Shown here: in pieces, positions 21,688 through 40,483 of the stretch
How positions within the stretch are numbered: position 1 is the stretch's first letter
Layout: each line of letters begins with the position of its first letter
DNA from: a phage
Length of the DNA stretch: 64,000 nucleotides
Strand: one strand, 5' to 3'
Sequence record: PX104380.1
The notes under the pieces: model-generated
What the model was told of the DNA's origin: nothing
Seen by the model: the letters and a program-made list of their open reading frames with translations, nothing else
Database searches by the model: none
Position numbers and translations under genes: made by a program

Positions 21688-22407
21688 TTAGGATTCTTCT
21701 AAATGTCTTTTCTGAAAAGTTGATACCATACTACGATACGGTTCATTTGGATACCCGTGTTTTATAGCTTCCTTTGTAAATTTTCTCCATCCATATTTAG
21801 TTTCTTTCCAAAGCTCGAATAATTCATCTTCATACTGCCATATAGTTAAATGAGAACGCTTTGCAGCTTTAATTCCATTAATATGCTTTTCTTTTACTAC
21901 AGGATTGCTTAGTTTCTTTTTAATAATATTACTAACTTTTCTAACAAAAACTGGGTCCTTATATCGTTGCGAAGTTTTTATTGAAGTGTTTAATTTAGCT
22001 TCCGGTGTGGATGTGACCTCTTTCATCTTTTTCTTCATATGCTGTATATGATTAGGATTTTTCCATAAATTTATAGAATGCTTTTTGCATTTTATCCTAG
22101 TTTCATCTGCAACCTTTCCTCCTTCACCTCCGTATGACAGGTTAACACAGTTTTTTCCATATTTCAATTTACCTGCCATGATATATAATATTTCAGCTTG
22201 TACCATTTTATCATAATTATCAAAAACTTCTAAAACCGTTTTTGATAATATGTGGTCATTTGACACTTTTACACGTTCTATATAATTTCCACTACCAACA
22301 TACGAATCATTGATGTTATTAGTTATATGTCGACCATAATAGTATTTCTTAATACCTGTCTTTAAATTTAATATTTCAGTTTTATAGATAGTAAAATATT
22401 TTTTCAT
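21688..22407 (-). mobile_element. divergent GIY-YIG-like putative endonuclease (239 aa)
   Basis: IYKTE...KYYYGRHITNNINDSYVGSG parallels KEYIGAHSTDNINDGYMGSG of the ORF at 11264-12094; basic C-terminal half. Confidence 0.4.
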
Positions 22408-23372
22408 TTTAATAATACCGTTTCAGCAATTTCTTCCCAATGATTTTTGTCGGTCATAATAAAGTCAGCAAGATAAAGAGCAGTACGCAGTGAAACATTG
22501 CGTAAACGATTAACATTGACTTTCATCCATGATAATGCTTTATAAGTTTCTTCATCAGAAAGACCGCGCTTTTGCATCATGTCAGTTGAAAGAATAACAT
22601 CTTCAACCCTGACCATAATTTCTTCATTAGTGTGAACACCCAAATCCAAATAAACTGAGCGGGACACTAATGCTTGTAAATGTGGAGCAAGTTTAGTACC
22701 ACGGTCTAATTCGCGGTCAATGTCAACGTTTGTGATAAAAACAATCGTTCCTTTAAATTCAAACTCACGCTCAATGCCTTTTTCTTCTAAGTAAGAAGAT
22801 GCGGTGCTCCAGCAGACTTTACGGGTCTCTCCAGTGTCCAGAGCAGCTTTCAGAAGATTAAGAATGTCCATATCAGAGAAAACATCCACATCATCAATCA
22901 AAAGGACAGAATTCTCTTCACGATTATTCCAAAGCTGTTCATAAAGACCGATACCAGAGATTTTACCATTAATGCTTTTATACTCAATGTATCCAATATC
23001 ATTTGCTTTATTTAAAGCTTTATCTAAAGAATACGTTTTACCAATACCCGCCGCGCCAGAGATAATTAATGAACGAATGTTTCCGTTAATAATACCATTC
23101 GTCATCATTCCCATAACATTAAATCTTTTATTAATGCGGGTTTTCATATCTTCATACGATTCTTTAACTTCTTCAACTTTTACACCATCATATGAAATGT
23201 CTGATTTGTAAACCCAAACACCGCGACGTTTACCGTCAATTTCAACAAAAACTTTACCATCTCCTTGTGCATCTACTGGAGCATTATCAGGGAACCACTC
23301 ACCTAAGAGTTCAAAGGTTCCAGAGATTTCTTTGCCAAAGTAAATACCCTTATTGATAGTTACAGTTTTCAT
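22404..23372 (-). CDS. P-loop AAA+-type ATPase of unknown function (322 aa from SD-supported start MKTVTINKG)
   Basis: Walker A GAAGIGKT, Walker B VLLIDDVD, downstream TN sensor-like residues; own early promoter. Confidence 0.6.
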   Translation of the reverse strand: MKTVTINKGIYFGKEISGTFELLGEWFPDNAPVDAQGDGKVFVEIDGKRRGVWVYKSDISYDGVKVEEVKESYEDMKTRINKRFNVMGMMTNGIINGNIRSLIISGAAGIGKTYSLDKALNKANDIGYIEYKSINGKISGIGLYEQLWNNREENSVLLIDDVDVFSDMDILNLLKAALDTGETRKVCWSTASSYLEEKGIEREFEFKGTIVFITNVDIDRELDRGTKLAPHLQALVSRSVYLDLGVHTNEEIMVRVEDVILSTDMMQKRGLSDEETYKALSWMKVNVNRLRNVSLRTALYLADFIMTDKNHWEEIAETVLLK

Positions 23373-23406
23373 TTTATTCTCCAAATCTGTATCAGTTGAT
23401 AGTTGT

Positions 23407-23436
23407 ATAGTACCATAAAGCTTTATGCTTGTAAAC
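23407..23436 (-). promoter_or_regulatory. T4 early-type promoter
   Basis: Minus-strand GTTTACAAGCATAAAGCTTTATGGTACTAT + conserved 22-mer. Confidence 0.6.
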
Positions 23437-23460
23437 AACTTTGTGAAAAATTTTTGAAAT

Positions 23461-23485
23461 AAAAAAAGGGAGCCCGAAGGCTCCC
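23461..23485 (-). terminator. rho-independent terminator (7-bp G+C stem, UUCG loop, U7)
   Basis: gggagcc-cgaa-ggctccc stem preceded on plus strand by A7. Confidence 0.75.
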
Positions 23486-23487
23486 TA

Positions 23488-24501
23488 TCATTTATAATAA
23501 CTTCGATGGTTTTCAAGATAGACCTTCTCAAGGAAGTCATCCCAGAAACTCATATCTACCTTATCAGGCATACCGTTCTTAGAAGCTTCAGTAGATGCTG
23601 CTTCTACTTGATCAACCACATCTTCCAAAAACTCTTGAACTGTTTTAAATGGATGTTTACCCAGCTTCACGTCGAGAATAAATGGAGCATCTTGAAGTGG
23701 ATAAATTAAGTCGCCAGTTTTGTAAATTTCCAATAGTTGGAGTCCACCACGACAAGCATGACTCAAAGCTTTCCAGTCAATGCCTTCATTGGCTTCGGCT
23801 TTACGAGCACGTTCACCGTATTCAGCATCTAATTTGTTCAGTGACTGCTTAAGCTCAATAAGAGAAAGCGTTGTCTGATATTTACGACCCAACACAGTGT
23901 AGAACGTTTGTGGGCCTGTTTTCTCATGATTATGGAACACCCATTCACAGAATTCGTTTTCTGGAAGACGATGCTTAATATCTTCAATTTTAGTGCGACG
24001 TTGTCCTTGTGTTCCATCTTCTCGGTAGACATTCCGTTGATCAGGAATTTGATTAATTACTTTCAACACATCACGTAATGCAGCTAGACGAGAACCTTTA
24101 ACACCATATTTAGAAGCTTGCTTGCGAACATATCCTAAATAGGATTTCATGTTAGTCGTATAAAAACGAGAACGGTTGTCTTGAATAAACTTCCACACAT
24201 CAGGCAAATCAGATTTAACCACTAGTTCAGGTGGAGTGTGTAGCATATCCAATGCTACAGTTTCACCATCTGCTGCTAATTTAAAGAAATATTTAAGACT
24301 GTATAGTTCATGGTCAATATCATCTTTAGTGTTTTTAGATGATGTGTTGTTAGTGTTTTTACTCATGTGCTCTTTGACATTTCCGATAAGAATATCGCGA
24401 GCAGGAGGAACAAAGATTTCTTTAAAATCTACATCAGATTCTGGAGTAGAAATTCCATAAAGATGACTACCAAAATAGCTTTTCATTACTGTTTTCATCA
24501 T
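23488..24501 (-). CDS. Pol-beta-superfamily nucleotidyltransferase-like protein (337 aa)
   Basis: FGSHLYGISTPESDVDF matches the GS-x(9-10)-DxD minimal NTase motif; large helical C-terminal domain. Confidence 0.55.
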   Translation of the reverse strand: MMKTVMKSYFGSHLYGISTPESDVDFKEIFVPPARDILIGNVKEHMSKNTNNTSSKNTKDDIDHELYSLKYFFKLAADGETVALDMLHTPPELVVKSDLPDVWKFIQDNRSRFYTTNMKSYLGYVRKQASKYGVKGSRLAALRDVLKVINQIPDQRNVYREDGTQGQRRTKIEDIKHRLPENEFCEWVFHNHEKTGPQTFYTVLGRKYQTTLSLIELKQSLNKLDAEYGERARKAEANEGIDWKALSHACRGGLQLLEIYKTGDLIYPLQDAPFILDVKLGKHPFKTVQEFLEDVVDQVEAASTEASKNGMPDKVDMSFWDDFLEKVYLENHRSYYK

Positions 24502-24959
24502 TCAGCCTTATATTCAATAACAGGACATACTTTAGCTTTACGAGCTTTTAAAAATTCAACGATAATCGATTTCTTGGGTTGAATAGGAGGTAAACCTTTA
24601 TTTTTCCTATCAATGTTTTCTACGTGTAAAGCATAATCCTTTTTCCATTTATAATCTTTATATTTTTCACGCAAATGTACAGGAATAACAAATGAACCAA
24701 TAATAAGTAAAACAACCAAAAGCGCAAGTATAAATGCTGATGGAAGCAAAGTCCATAAACTACCAAAAATAAGCCAGCGCTGTAAACTTTCTGCACAAAT
24801 AATTGTCAGCCCTACGAGTATAGCACACCCAAAAATAGAAACGAAAAATGTAGGGATAACAATAGACCAAAAGTATGCACATAGCGTCTTAGGTCGTTGC
24901 CATTCATCGTTAAACAATTTGAATAATTTATAGTGCCAAGAGTTTTCATTAATAATCAT
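24498..24959 (-). CDS. integral membrane protein (153 aa)
   Basis: Three predicted hydrophobic helices. Confidence 0.55.
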   Translation of the reverse strand: MIINENSWHYKLFKLFNDEWQRPKTLCAYFWSIVIPTFFVSIFGCAILVGLTIICAESLQRWLIFGSLWTLLPSAFILALLVVLLIIGSFVIPVHLREKYKDYKWKKDYALHVENIDRKNKGLPPIQPKKSIIVEFLKARKAKVCPVIEYKAE

Positions 24960-24961
24960 AA

Positions 24962-25483
24962 TTATCCTTTCATTGAAGGCGTAACGGTTGTTAAATACTT
25001 AATCATAGCTTCAGCTTCTGATTTTGATAATGAAATTTCTCCATTGTTTTGACGAATAGAAATAAAATCCGGATGACGGTCACCACCAGCTTTTAAAACG
25101 CACATATAAGTATCAACTTCGCCTTCAATATTTGAAATGATTGAAGCAGTTCCACATGAATGCGGTTTTTGATAAATCAATGCAGCTTTTCTTCCGCCAT
25201 TTGACTGTTCATAAACTTTTAATACATCAAACAAATCACTTCTTTTATCAATAGCTAAAATGTTATTTTCATCTTCAATGTTAAATCCTTCGGATACTTC
25301 ATAAAGTGTCACCCATAAATCGCCAATATCAATAACAGCGTTCACTTTTCCATGACTTTCAAGAGCATGACAAATTTTCTTGATTTCGTCATAACCCATT
25401 TTAATAATATCATCTCCTTGAATAAGAAAGATGTCATTTTTAAATTCAACACGAATTAAACCACTTCCACTTGAAATAAACAT
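24962..25483 (-). CDS. hypothetical protein, paralog B of tandem pair (173 aa)
   Basis: C-terminus SEAEAMIKYLTTVTPSM parallels DEAIALKNYLDSVIPTM of the upstream gene. Confidence 0.55.
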   Translation of the reverse strand: MFISSGSGLIRVEFKNDIFLIQGDDIIKMGYDEIKKICHALESHGKVNAVIDIGDLWVTLYEVSEGFNIEDENNILAIDKRSDLFDVLKVYEQSNGGRKAALIYQKPHSCGTASIISNIEGEVDTYMCVLKAGGDRHPDFISIRQNNGEISLSKSEAEAMIKYLTTVTPSMKG

Positions 25484-25489
25484 ATTTCC

Positions 25490-26044
25490 TCACTTTGAAA
25501 TCATAGTTGGAATGACAGAATCAAGATAATTCTTTAGCGCAATAGCTTCGTCTTTGGTAAATGTGACAATATGTGCTCGAGAATCATCATTTTGGCGAAC
25601 AAGTACGACATCGCCATCTTCATAAGAAGTCTTGACATCCAAAGTCGTAGTATAGTTTGCAGCTACTGGATTAATAATGCTAGCACCGCGATCTTTAGCC
25701 CATTGAAGTTTAACCTTTTCGGGTGTTTCGACTGTTTCAGATTCCAAGAATTCTTTCACCTTGGTAACGAATGTTGCCCAATTGTTGATAGAAAGACACA
25801 TAAATTCAGTTTCAATATTACCGCCGTAAAGGCCACGATAAAAACGAACTTGGAGGTCGCCTGTAATATTAGTTACACCGGTAACTCCTGAGGGAGCATA
25901 AGATAAAATCGCAGCCAGTTCCATAGGGAGAATAGTAATACTATCGTCTTCCTGCGTCAGAACGTATACATTATCACGTTTTTCGATAACCAGGTCACCG
26001 AACAAATCAGTTGTTTCAATTACAGCTTTCATATTATTTACCAA
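25490..26044 (-). CDS. hypothetical protein, paralog A of tandem pair (184 aa)
   Basis: See paralog B. Confidence 0.55.
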   Translation of the reverse strand: MVNNMKAVIETTDLFGDLVIEKRDNVYVLTQEDDSITILPMELAAILSYAPSGVTGVTNITGDLQVRFYRGLYGGNIETEFMCLSINNWATFVTKVKEFLESETVETPEKVKLQWAKDRGASIINPVAANYTTTLDVKTSYEDGDVVLVRQNDDSRAHIVTFTKDEAIALKNYLDSVIPTMISK

Positions 26045-26219
26045 TTAAAGTTTCAATATAAGAATCAAGATTTACTTTAGCTTCTTCCATAAGAATTTTG
26101 TATTTAATCTTGTTAGCATGTCCGGAGAAAGCTGATTCATCAATAATTGTTGATGTATGAACAGCTCTACTATACGTCTCAATTAATTCTCTTAATTTAA
26201 AAGCCTGCTCACTTGTCAT
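26034..26219 (-). CDS. small helical protein (61 aa), member of small paralog family
   Basis: SEQAFKLRELI...YIETL pattern shared with several small ORFs. Confidence 0.45.
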   Translation of the reverse strand: MTSEQAFKLRELIETYSRAVHTSTIIDESAFSGHANKIKYKILMEEAKVNLDSYIETLIGK

Positions 26220-26323
26220 TACATACTCCTTTGAATAATATCAATAATGTTATTCACCAGATTATAAGTAAACATTGGGTAATTATATTGAATCATCACA
26301 TACACAACAAACAAAACTTTCAT
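26219..26323 (-). CDS. small hydrophobic peptide (34 aa), TAATG-coupled to downstream gene
   Basis: ATG at 26323 preceded by AAGGAGAAGAGA, about 22 nt downstream of predicted transcription start; not in ORF track because of size. Confidence 0.4.
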   Translation of the reverse strand: MKVLFVVYVMIQYNYPMFTYNLVNNIIDIIQRSM

Positions 26324-26351
26324 TCTCTTCTCCTTGGCAGTTGACAAGATT

Positions 26352-26381
26352 ACTATACCATAACCTTGCCAACTTGTAAAC
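26352..26381 (-). promoter_or_regulatory. T4 early-type promoter heading the operon that ends at the NTase gene
   Basis: Minus-strand GTTTACAAGTTGGCAAGGTTATGGTATAGT. Confidence 0.55.
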
Positions 26382-26546
26382 CATTAAATGACGTTTTCGA
26401 TAAAATTCTGAAGCTTTGTATGAGCATCAACCATGATTTTCATTTCTTCCTTTGCGAAAGCTGTGCCTCTTTCACGAGAAGAACATTCATAGTCAGAAAC
26501 TGCATTAGCATATTCTTCAATTAGCTTCATTAAAAACATCTGCTTT

Positions 26547-26741
26547 TCAGTTTTCATTATTCCACCTAATCATTTCAAGATATTGAACTAACTTAGCTTT
26601 GGATTTATCCAAATCCTTTTTAGCTGTTGCTATACCTTCGTATGAATATCCTTCACAATGCTCAACTGCTAATTGATATGAATCTATTTCAACATCACGT
26701 GCTAATTTAATGATTTTTTCAAACTGTTCGTGTGTTAACAT
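26547..26741 (-). CDS. small helical protein (64 aa), small paralog family
   Basis: THEQFEKIIKLA...VQYLEMI pattern. Confidence 0.45.
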   Translation of the reverse strand: MLTHEQFEKIIKLARDVEIDSYQLAVEHCEGYSYEGIATAKKDLDKSKAKLVQYLEMIRWNNEN

Positions 26742-26743
26742 AA

Positions 26744-26983
26744 TTAAACTCTCGTATTATGATCGATAATTTCATCAAGAAACATATCTAACGCTTCTAT
26801 AGCATTATCCACTTTAGTTTCAAAGTCTTTAATGCCTTTATTCGAAATACCCGATGAATACCAAGCAAAGTCAATCAGCTCTTCATCTGCTTTGCGAATT
26901 GAAGCCACTAATTCCTTGATTTTATCTGCTTGCTCTACGCTAATCATTATTCCACCACATATGACAGAGAGAATATTGCACAC
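26744..26983 (-). CDS. small helical protein (79 aa), small paralog family
   Basis: [12 protein letters not shown]...ALDMFLDEI pattern. Confidence 0.45.
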
Positions 26984-27135
26984 GCCATGTGAGTTGCAAC
27001 TTCATCACACATATTATAACGTTTCTTAAGAAGTTCTACAAGTTCTTCACTAGTAACTTCATCCATGTCGACGAAAAAATCACCATTAATGATGACGTAG
27101 ATATTTCCTTCTTGATTGAGTGCTTCAATTTTCAT
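26947..27135 (-). CDS. hypothetical small protein (62 aa from SD-supported start MKIEALN)
   Basis: Early promoter at 27164-27193 excludes the longer listed start; GAGGAGAACATC precedes ATG. Confidence 0.45.
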
Positions 27136-27163
27136 GATGTTCTCCTCTTTATCCGATGGTTGT

Positions 27164-27193
27164 ATAGTATCACAGCTCAAACGGAAAGTAAAC
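27164..27193 (-). promoter_or_regulatory. T4 early-type promoter
   Basis: Minus-strand GTTTACTTTCCGTTTGAGCTGTGATACTAT. Confidence 0.55.
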
Positions 27194-27203
27194 CGGTAAA
27201 ATG

Positions 27204-27226
27204 AAAAAAGTCTCCCGAAGGAGACT
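27204..27226 (-). terminator. rho-independent terminator (UUCG-loop hairpin + U-run)
   Basis: agtctcc-cgaa-ggagact stem, followed on minus transcript by UUUUUUCAU. Confidence 0.7.
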
Positions 27227-27230
27227 AATG

Positions 27231-27617
27231 TTATTCGAGGGAAAGAAGATACTTACTCTGGTAAAACATTCCAGTAATATCATCTATCGTGCTTTGAATG
27301 GCTGGAGGCATTTCTTTATAAATGCTGTTAGATTGGTCTAGTATGCGATCAATCATTTTAATTGTGTCGGTAGGAAGTTTACTGGCATCTGGAATTGAAG
27401 GCGTGTATTTTCTACCAGAATACCCCAAATATTGCTCACCAAATTTATCAATCAAATCTGGCAATTCGGAGAAAATAAAATCGTATGCTTTGTGTCTAGC
27501 ATAACTTTTAGTTTCAAAATGCGCAGAATGAAAATAAGCTTGTGCAGCCATTAATAAACCTAAGTATTCATCTGCCTTTGAAGGTTTTCCACTTTGTGAA
27601 AAGTCGCTGAATTTCAT
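27231..27617 (-). CDS. hypothetical protein adjacent to rI (128 aa)
   Basis: Minus-strand ORF overlapping rI stop by 4 nt. Confidence 0.55.
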
Positions 27618-39465: not shown

Positions 39466-39541
39466 TGGTCGAGGCAGTAGGGATCGAACCTACGACCTAG
39501 GACTTAGAAGGTCCTTGCTCTTCCTTCTGAGCTATGCCCCG
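39466..39541 (-). tRNA. tRNA-Arg (anticodon UCU)
   Basis: Manual fold: acceptor CGGGGCA/TGCCTCG, anticodon loop CTTCTAA, T-arm GGTTCGATCC, encoded CCA. Confidence 0.85.
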
Positions 39542-39545
39542 TAAT

Positions 39546-39621
39546 TGGGGTGACCGATGGGAGTCGAACCCATGACTACGAGAATCACAATCTCGAGTTC
39601 TACCAACTGAACTACGGCCAC
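39546..39621 (-). tRNA. tRNA-His (anticodon GUG)
   Basis: Manual fold: acceptor GTGGCCG/CGGTCAC, discriminator C73, anticodon loop TTGTGAT. Confidence 0.8.
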
Positions 39622-39735
39622 ATTAATACCTACTCCAACAATCAAGATGTCTTCACACGAAATTAAGAGAAGAGTGATCAGTTCAACCCCTATAATCGCG
39701 TCAAGTAGATATTAATGTGACAGTTGTCACAAATT

Positions 39736-39810
39736 TGGCGGACGTGATAGGATTCGAACCTATAACCAATCGCTTAACAGGCGATCGCTCTGCCATTGAG
39801 CTACACATCC
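39736..39810 (-). tRNA. tRNA-Asn (anticodon GUU)
   Basis: Manual fold: acceptor GGATGTG/CACGTCC, anticodon stem ATCGC/GCGAT, loop CTGTTAA. Confidence 0.8.
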
Positions 39811-39814
39811 AAAT

Positions 39815-39901
39815 TGGTGGGGAGTGGTGGAGTCGAACCACCCGAGTCGCAATGACAATGAATTTACAGTCCACACCGCTACCTCTACGGGATAACTCCC
39901 C
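39815..39901 (-). tRNA. tRNA-Tyr (anticodon GUA), long variable arm
   Basis: Manual fold: acceptor GGGGAGT/ACTCCCC, anticodon loop CTGTAAA, 87 nt. Confidence 0.7.
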
Positions 39902-39910
39902 AAATTAATT

Positions 39911-39985
39911 TGGTGGCCCTGGGTGGAATTGAACCACCATCTGGCGATTATGAGTCGCTTGCTTGAACCTTCCAGCTACAGGGCC
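39911..39985 (-). tRNA. tRNA with CAU anticodon (Ile-lysidine type as in T4, or Met)
   Basis: Manual fold: acceptor GGCCCTG/CAGGGCC, anticodon loop CTCATAA. Confidence 0.75.
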
Positions 39986-39986
39986 T

Positions 39987-40062
39987 TGGTGCTGATTAAC
40001 GGAATCGAACCGCCGACCTTCTCATTACAAGTGAGTTGCTCTACCTACTGAGCTAAATCAGC
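39987..40062 (-). tRNA. tRNA-Thr (anticodon UGU)
   Basis: Manual fold: acceptor GCTGATT/AATCAGC, anticodon loop CTTGTAA. Confidence 0.8.
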
Positions 40063-40067
40063 AAAAC

Positions 40068-40157
40068 TGGCGGAGGTGATAGGATTCGAACCTATGAATC
40101 GCCGGAGCGACTGCCGGTTTTCAAGACCGGTGCATTCAACCACTCTGCCACACCTCC
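40068..40157 (-). tRNA. tRNA-Ser (anticodon UGA), long variable arm
   Basis: Manual fold: acceptor GGAGGTG/CACCTCC, anticodon stem CCGGT/ACCGG, loop CTTGAAA, 90 nt. Confidence 0.8.
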
Positions 40158-40159
40158 AG

Positions 40160-40233
40160 TCTCCATACAAGGATTTGAACCTTGGACCTCCTGATCCCAA
40201 ATCAGGCGCTCTACCAAACTGAGCTACACGGAG
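40160..40233 (-). tRNA. tRNA-Pro (anticodon UGG), 3' CCA not encoded
   Basis: Manual fold: acceptor CTCCGTG/TATGGAG, anticodon stem CCTGA/TCAGG, loop TTTGGGA. Confidence 0.8.
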
Positions 40234-40243
40234 TAAATTAAAT

Positions 40244-40317
<74 letters not shown>

Positions 40318-40322
40318 AAATT

Positions 40323-40409
40323 TGGTGCGAGAAGTGGGACTCGAACCCACAAGGAAATCATTCCGCAGCATTTTAAGTGCTGTGCCTTTACCAATTTGAC
40401 CATTCTCGC
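40323..40409 (-). tRNA. tRNA-Leu (anticodon UAA), long variable arm
   Basis: Manual fold: acceptor GCGAGAA/TTCTCGC, anticodon stem CAGCA/TGCTG, loop CTTAAAA. Confidence 0.85.
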
Positions 40410-40410
40410 G

Positions 40411-40483
40411 CTGGGAATAAAGGACTCGAACCTTTGCATCCTGGAATCAAAATCCAGTGCCTTACCAACTTGGCTAATTCCCA
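40411..40483 (-). tRNA. tRNA-Gln (anticodon UUG), 3' CCA not encoded
   Basis: Manual fold: acceptor TGGGAAT/ATTCCCA (U1-A72), anticodon stem CTGGA/TCCAG, loop TTTTGAT. Confidence 0.85.

Follow-up and report, generated by a model that had tools for sequence, protein, structure and literature searches.

What is encoded by the promoter-distal gene of a small early-type gene cluster in phage PX104380.1, and on what does its product act? The question concerns a 337-amino-acid (aa) open reading frame (ORF) at positions 23488-24501 on the minus strand of the window, the 64,000-nucleotide (nt) stretch of the phage record that was analysed; its N-terminus reads MMKTVMKSYFGSHLYGISTPESDVDF. An earlier reading of the letters without database searches (the sequence-only reading) had called its product a nucleotidyltransferase (NTase) of the DNA polymerase beta (Pol-beta) type, left its subfamily unassigned, and considered either counter-defence or nucleotide signalling together with a co-expressed membrane protein, or maturation of two phage tRNAs. 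The protein proved to be the ortholog of NrdC.11 of phage T4 and, by sequence-profile comparison, a member of the RlaP family (PF10127). By analogy with characterized RlaP proteins, NrdC.11 is probably an early-made, template-independent RNA 3'-nucleotidyltransferase that restores trimmed nucleotides of nuclease-cut tRNA before sealing.

Orthology was evident from 94-95% identity to T4 and T2 NrdC.11 over the full length, and from gene position: T4 nrdC.11 (T4p095, NP_049709), whose RefSeq product is 'nucleotidyltransferase', likewise lies upstream of nrdC.10 in the same terminator and promoter context. A match of nrdC.11 orthologs to COG3541, a nucleotidyltransferase domain, was reported as early as 2006 (PMC1524935). 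The window therefore adds no new gene: the 337-aa protein is the known T4 NrdC.11, a protein already assigned to RlaP. The sequence-only reading had allowed for the gene being a well-characterised T4 ortholog with an unrelated function; a T4 ortholog exists and its family has been published, but it is neither well characterised nor unrelated in function.

The motif on which the Pol-beta call had been based was present as GS-x10-DxD, once in the 337-aa protein and in only this one of the 72 ORFs of at least 100 aa in the window. Pfam RlaP, described as 'RNA repair pathway DNA polymerase beta family', matched residues 7-135 and scored 45.9 bits, where the curated cut-off is 23 (E 7.7e-12); the match spans positions 23-142 of the 249-position profile. 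The family name reportedly comes from Burroughs and Aravind in 2016. PHROG 388 ('nucleotidyltransferase') matched end to end (E 2e-136), NCBIfam gave nothing significant for the proteins of the operon, and no second RlaP was found within the window. An exhaustive profile search retrieved 3471 cluster representatives, of which 819 reached E <= 1e-30, mostly over their full length. Seventy homologs with 34-95% identity were aligned, each of which matched Pfam RlaP and no other Pfam family. G10, S11, D22, D24, and D62 were invariant throughout this alignment, as were R230, K243, H247, and R250 (residue numbers follow the 336-aa T4 NrdC.11; add 1 for the 337-aa ORF). Comparison by hhalign with 15 canonical RlaPs gave a probability of 92.8% (E 3.9e-7) over the NTase domain, paired GS and DxD with GS and DxD, and set D62 opposite D83, the invariant third aspartate of the canonical proteins. 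The conservation of DxD and the third catalytic carboxylate, both of which the sequence-only reading had left to an alignment, were thus established.

An AlphaFold (AF2) model of the 337-aa protein was obtained with high confidence (predicted local distance difference test score, pLDDT, 93.3) and showed a Pol-beta NTase fold. In T4 numbering it comprised the NTase domain (approximately residues 1-115), a helical linker (118-149), a beta-rich insert (approximately 154-208), and a helical bundle (213-335) that includes a long terminal helix (316-335). The crystal structure of an RlaP from Pseudomonas fluorescens (PfRlaP) consists of an N-terminal NTase and a C-terminal helical domain whose last helix packs back on the NTase (PMC12776372). 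Every meaningful match of the AF2 model in the Protein Data Bank (PDB) was a Pol-beta NTase. Together with the RlaP profile match and the invariant D22, D24, and D62, this fold bore out the original Pol-beta call. PDB sequence searches with the 337-aa protein, with the 70-member profile, and with canonical RlaP found no solved relative.

RNA repair was discovered in phage T4, where Pnkp and Rnl1 counter PrrC. A role for NrdC.11 in such repair is suggested by the activity of its relatives. According to a preprint of December 2025, PfRlaP and PaRlaP (from P. aeruginosa) add one or two nucleoside monophosphates to RNA 3'-OH ends, prefer Mn2+ and mimics of cleaved tRNA, and do not label DNA or proteins (PMC12776372). 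Addition precedes ligation, and the Pseudomonas RlaPs can restore aminoacylation of a tRNA that is short of one anticodon-loop nucleotide (PMC12776372). In jumbo phages, the distribution of RlaP mirrors that of RNA ligases (PMC7824862). On this model, a host anticodon nuclease of the RloC type would cut a tRNA and also shorten its 5' fragment by a nucleotide at the 3' end, after which the phage Pnkp would take off the 3' phosphate to yield a 3'-OH. NrdC.11 would then restore the trimmed nucleotides, and the phage RNA ligase 1 (Rnl1) would close the nick; since the RlaP product is a 3'-OH end, it would suit 5'-phosphate ligases such as Rnl1. NrdC.11 would, in that case, share the activity of the Pseudomonas RlaPs, act on damaged tRNA, and work with Pnkp and Rnl1 encoded some 80 kb away: EC121, the closest relative of the phage, encodes PseT and RnlA approximately 80 kb from its NrdC.11 gene. 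The counter-defence role envisaged by the sequence-only reading would probably consist in mending tRNA that anticodon nucleases of the host have cut, and not in a signalling module with a membrane protein.

Gene neighbourhoods of cellular relatives pointed to RNA repair as well. Eighty bacterial and archaeal genomes with full-length NrdC.11-type genes (34-53% identity) were sampled, and in 36 of these at least one gene for canonical RlaP, RtcB, Pnkp, or Ro60 was located within 6 kb of the NrdC.11-type gene, a count from BLAST that is a lower bound. Canonical RlaP was found at 25 loci, RtcB at 10, the bacterial Pnkp kinase-phosphatase-ligase at 8, Ro60 at 4, and T4-type Pnkp at 3; genes for RtcA, T4-type RNA ligase, and HD-domain proteins were also among the neighbours. 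Canonical RlaP (250-280 aa) followed directly downstream on the same strand at 23 of its 25 loci (for example, L103:6001-7708), with gaps of a few to approximately 260 nt and full-length PF10127 matches with E down to 1e-81; such tandem paralog pairs are not mentioned in the text of the RlaP preprint (PMC12776372). A few distant phage contigs also had RtcB, Pnkp, or HD genes next to the NrdC.11 homolog. HD-domain (HD or HD_4) genes directly adjoined NrdC.11 homologs at ten of the collected phage and bacterial loci (L066, L069, L070, L071, L096, L117, L128, L131, L150, and L159) and may encode a phosphoesterase partner in RNA end healing.

The second role considered at the outset, addition of CCA to the phage tRNAs that lack it or repair of trimmed CCA ends, has a basis in the window and in the biochemistry of the family. 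A cluster of 11 tRNA genes was located at 39466-40483 (minus strand), and its tRNA-Pro and tRNA-Gln indeed have no encoded CCA and each abut the next tRNA (dimeric precursors), as the sequence-only reading had noted with respect to CCA. The tRNA-Ser of this phage has an encoded CCA; T4 tRNA-Ser has been reported without one (PMC11143913). Like the class II CCA-adding and poly(A) polymerases (PF01743), to which NrdC.11 may be likened through the RlaP family, RlaP acts without a template on RNA 3'-OH ends and has a Pol-beta fold, and in total RNA of E. coli it also labels full-length RNAs of tRNA size (PMC12776372). However, RlaP adds just 1-2 nt, shows little NTP selectivity and no CCA specificity, unlike the CCA-specific class II enzymes, and prefers the end at an anticodon break over the acceptor 3' end (PMC12776372). 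Moreover, processing of the T4 dimeric pre-tRNAs depends on the host tRNA nucleotidyltransferase, with RNase BN and RNase P (PMC11143913), no CCA-adding or poly(A) polymerase family (PF01743) was matched at E <= 1 in Pfam or NCBIfam, and no CCA-adding enzyme occurred among the fold matches listed. The bacterial NrdC.11-type genes adjoin RNA ligases, Pnkp, RtcB, and Ro60 instead of tRNA processing genes. CCA maturation was rejected because T4 relies on the host for tRNA processing and because CCA-enzyme signatures were lacking, and a CCA-adding or CCA-repairing role of NrdC.11 was judged unlikely.

Action on a host protein or metabolite, as a small-molecule or protein nucleotidylyltransferase resembling ANT and Lnu or as an AMPylating antitoxin of the MNT type, would be compatible with the generic similarity of the folds, which is all that speaks for it. 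Foldseek matches to such proteins were weak and fold-generic (E >= 4e-3, template-modelling scores 0.2-0.3), the neighbouring genes of NrdC.11 homologs indicated RNA repair, and labelling of proteins or DNA by the Pseudomonas RlaPs was not seen (PMC12776372). Neither an Rx4-6H HEPN motif nor a HEPN partner gene was present, and an MNT-HEPN toxin-antitoxin pair, consisting of a small NTase of approximately 100-150 aa and a HEPN toxin, was rejected. This explanation was accordingly considered highly improbable.

Several observations weigh against assigning to NrdC.11 the repair activity of canonical RlaP. Likeness to the canonical proteins extends to an alignable GS...DxD...D triad, possibly to the layout of an NTase with a helical C-terminal part, and to an association with RNA repair genes. 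Only the N-terminal 130 or so residues align to canonical RlaP, however; the C-terminal 200 residues, including the beta-rich insert, differ at the sequence level, and NrdC.11 is approximately 70-80 residues longer. Substrate or product could therefore differ. In the published sequence similarity network of the family, T4 NrdC.11 belongs to cluster 5 and canonical Pseudomonas RlaP to cluster 1a, and the same authors call T4 NrdC.11 an 'RlaP of unknown function' (PMC12776372). In this phage, the gene is unlinked to Pnkp or RNA ligase, and the association with repair genes holds for the NrdC.11 clade at the cellular loci and not inside the window. The T4 nrdC.11-mobD.3 deletion is viable on laboratory hosts (PMC9825161), which fits an accessory role and lends no positive support to one in repair. 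Finally, NrdC.11-type genes in bacteria often stand beside canonical RlaP and not in its place, and this frequent adjacency suggests that the two enzymes are not redundant. Together with the divergent C-terminal half, their co-occurrence allows a related but distinct specificity. A more specific proposal, offered tentatively, is that NrdC.11-type proteins are functionally distinct RlaP paralogs that in bacteria work alongside canonical RlaP; alone in T4-like phages, NrdC.11 might then give a three-enzyme tRNA repair system (Pnkp, NrdC.11, and Rnl1) that defeats nucleotide-trimming nucleases such as RloC.

The remaining proposal of the sequence-only reading involved the surroundings of the gene. 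Many Tequatrovirus (T4-like) phages, EC121 and RB18 among them, shared 96-97% identity with the region 23400-26400, at least 80% of which was spanned by 402 phage records. Seven ORFs had been claimed between promoter and terminator. Six tightly packed minus-strand genes were found (34, 61, 184 or, from ATG, 180, 173, 153, and 337 aa), with junctions of -11 to +6 nt, and the RefSeq annotation of phage G4498 likewise has six genes for the cluster. In the order of the window, the features are:

23467-23486, minus strand: intrinsic terminator with a GC-rich 8-bp stem, UUCG loop, and T-run
23488-24501, minus strand: NrdC.11 ortholog, RlaP-family Pol-beta nucleotidyltransferase by profile match, 337 aa from the first ATG (336 aa in T4)
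24498-24959, minus strand: 153-aa membrane protein (PHROG 944) with two long hydrophobic helices and a basic C-terminal tail
24962-25483, minus strand: 173-aa y05I-family protein (Pfam T4_y05I_N and T4_y05I_C) without T4 counterpart
25490-26044, minus strand: 184-aa ORF from TTG (180 aa from the ATG at 26032), y05I family, counterpart of T4 MobD.1
26034-26219, minus strand: 61-aa helical protein (Pfam DUF7438)
26219-26323, minus strand: 34-aa peptide, ortholog of T4 MobD.2 (PHROG 3515)
26352-26380, minus strand: T4 early-type sigma-70 promoter, (G)TTTACA-17-TATAGT with an extended -10 TG
27164-27193, minus strand: upstream early-type promoter, GTTTAC...TGaTACTAT

According to the signalling proposal, the NTase would make or modify a nucleotide or oligonucleotide signal, in the manner of CD-NTases or of HalB, and this signal would act on a membrane effector or imitate its ligand, with the translationally coupled 153-aa membrane protein as partner. 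The stop codon of the membrane gene overlaps the NTase start (ATGA), and in T4-like phages the membrane protein was the most often kept upstream neighbour (34 loci), nrdC.10 being retained downstream at 24 loci. Both neighbours were largely gone in more distant phages. T4 itself keeps NrdC.11 without the membrane protein, and no membrane neighbour occurred at any of the 80 bacterial loci or at most phage loci whose NrdC.11 was less than approximately 60% identical. The membrane protein had been described as polytopic; two long hydrophobic segments were found, which makes the term generous, and the hydropathy profile and a low-confidence AF2 model (pLDDT 66.7) suggest a two-helix hairpin. The protein is too small to form both the channel and the crown of a HalA-like partner. 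Its family is small (23 homologs found), with conserved ends NSWHYK...PKTLCAYFW and KARKAKVCPxIEY and a cytoplasmic tail that is strongly basic. In one phage, a 242-aa homolog (L034:3604-4332) matched Saf_2TM, the two-transmembrane effector domain fused to SAVED, at a sub-threshold E of 6.9e-4, a weak hint in favour of signalling.

Similarity to HalB, the NTase of the Hailong system (PDB 9dbh), provided a further hint, but the two proteins share 16% identity and sequence profiles revealed no link between them. HalB (217 aa) is without the large C-terminal half of NrdC.11 and primes its oligo-dA synthesis with a tyrosine, whereas no HalB-type C-terminal priming tyrosine was conserved among NrdC.11 homologs (Y327 was only 71% conserved). 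Furthermore, the Hailong NTase partners the HalA channel, while the membrane neighbour of NrdC.11 is not conserved beyond close relatives. PADLOC gave no match at E <= 0.1 for any operon protein, and thus none for either supposed partner. A CD-NTase or cGAS-like enzyme of the CBASS type was rejected, as Pfam gave no match to the CD-NTase profiles (SMODS, Mab-21), PADLOC gave none at E <= 0.1, and no CD-NTase was among the top fold matches. With a partner that is not co-conserved and PADLOC silent, a nucleotide-signal module appeared poorly supported and very unlikely. Its more elaborate form, a Hailong-like or anti-Hailong pair in which a short oligonucleotide gates the membrane protein or replaces the HalB signal and so keeps a host HalA-type channel closed, would be a long shot.

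Relative to T4, the cluster differs at one site. T4 carries the HNH homing endonuclease gene mobD between nrdC.11 and mobD.1 (L001:14430-15209); at the corresponding site (24498-25483), this phage encodes the membrane protein together with a further paralog of the y05I family. Both are absent from T4, a difference that is consistent with an exchange connected with the homing endonuclease. The paralogy of the 184-aa and 173-aa proteins noted by the sequence-only reading was upheld (29% identity, E 5e-9), both having the T4_y05I_N and T4_y05I_C domains. DUF7438 paralogs of 61, 57, and 64 aa, encoded at 26034-26219, 26384-26557, and 26547-26741 on the minus strand, straddle the promoter. The 61-aa protein is labelled 'helicase loader' by PHROG and RefSeq, which looks like an annotation carry-over because the protein is so small. 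The nrdC.10 ortholog (22404-23372, minus strand) is an AAA/STAND-like ATPase with weak Pfam matches only; its longest ORF (378 aa) extends through the terminator, and the true start is probably an internal Met that yields a 322-aa protein.

Transcription signals agreed in part with those originally proposed. The terminator at the end of the cluster (23486-23467, minus strand) was as strong as claimed: its 8-bp stem (6 GC), UUCG loop, and tail of seven T gave a folding free energy of -17.5 kcal/mol (z = -4.2), which was matched by none of 200 shuffled sequences. The promoter at 26380-26352 (minus strand; TTTACA-17-TATAGT with upstream TG) was the best sigma-70 match of the region (10 of 12 positions). 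In DNA this rich in AT, promoter-like matches hardly exceeded chance (26 against 20.3 expected), and the case for the promoter rests on position and conservation, not on match count: it lies in the 60-nt gap ahead of the 34-aa ORF, the only sizeable intergenic gap, and is kept in T4 and in phages with diverged flanks. It is, however, not the single early promoter that had been proposed. Upstream, a terminator (27226-27209) is followed by a second early-type promoter (27193-27164, minus strand), and no terminator was found between this promoter and the promoter at 26380 or the six genes. Its transcripts can therefore read into the six genes, and these form the distal portion of a longer transcription unit. 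On the minus strand, positions 23300-27400 yielded neither a MotA-box middle promoter nor a late promoter of the sequence TATAAATA. A third early-type promoter (23436-23407, minus strand), just past the terminator at 23467-23486, serves nrdC.10. Over the whole window, the T4 early-promoter style motif GTTTAC-N15-19-TAnn[AT]T occurred 17 times on the minus strand and once on the plus strand, a bias that is consistent with a long leftward early-gene region.

Restoration of nucleotides has already been proposed in the literature for the RlaP family, of which T4 NrdC.11 is a named member. To this, the present analysis adds modestly: a repair neighbourhood for the NrdC.11 clade in particular, a C-terminal half distinct from that of canonical RlaP, and a common tandem pairing with canonical RlaP in bacteria. 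If the proposed role of NrdC.11 in tRNA repair is correct, NrdC.11 would be the third, hitherto missing enzyme by which T4-like phages beat nucleotide-excising anticodon nucleases such as RloC, and the RlaP hypothesis would gain a tractable genetic system.

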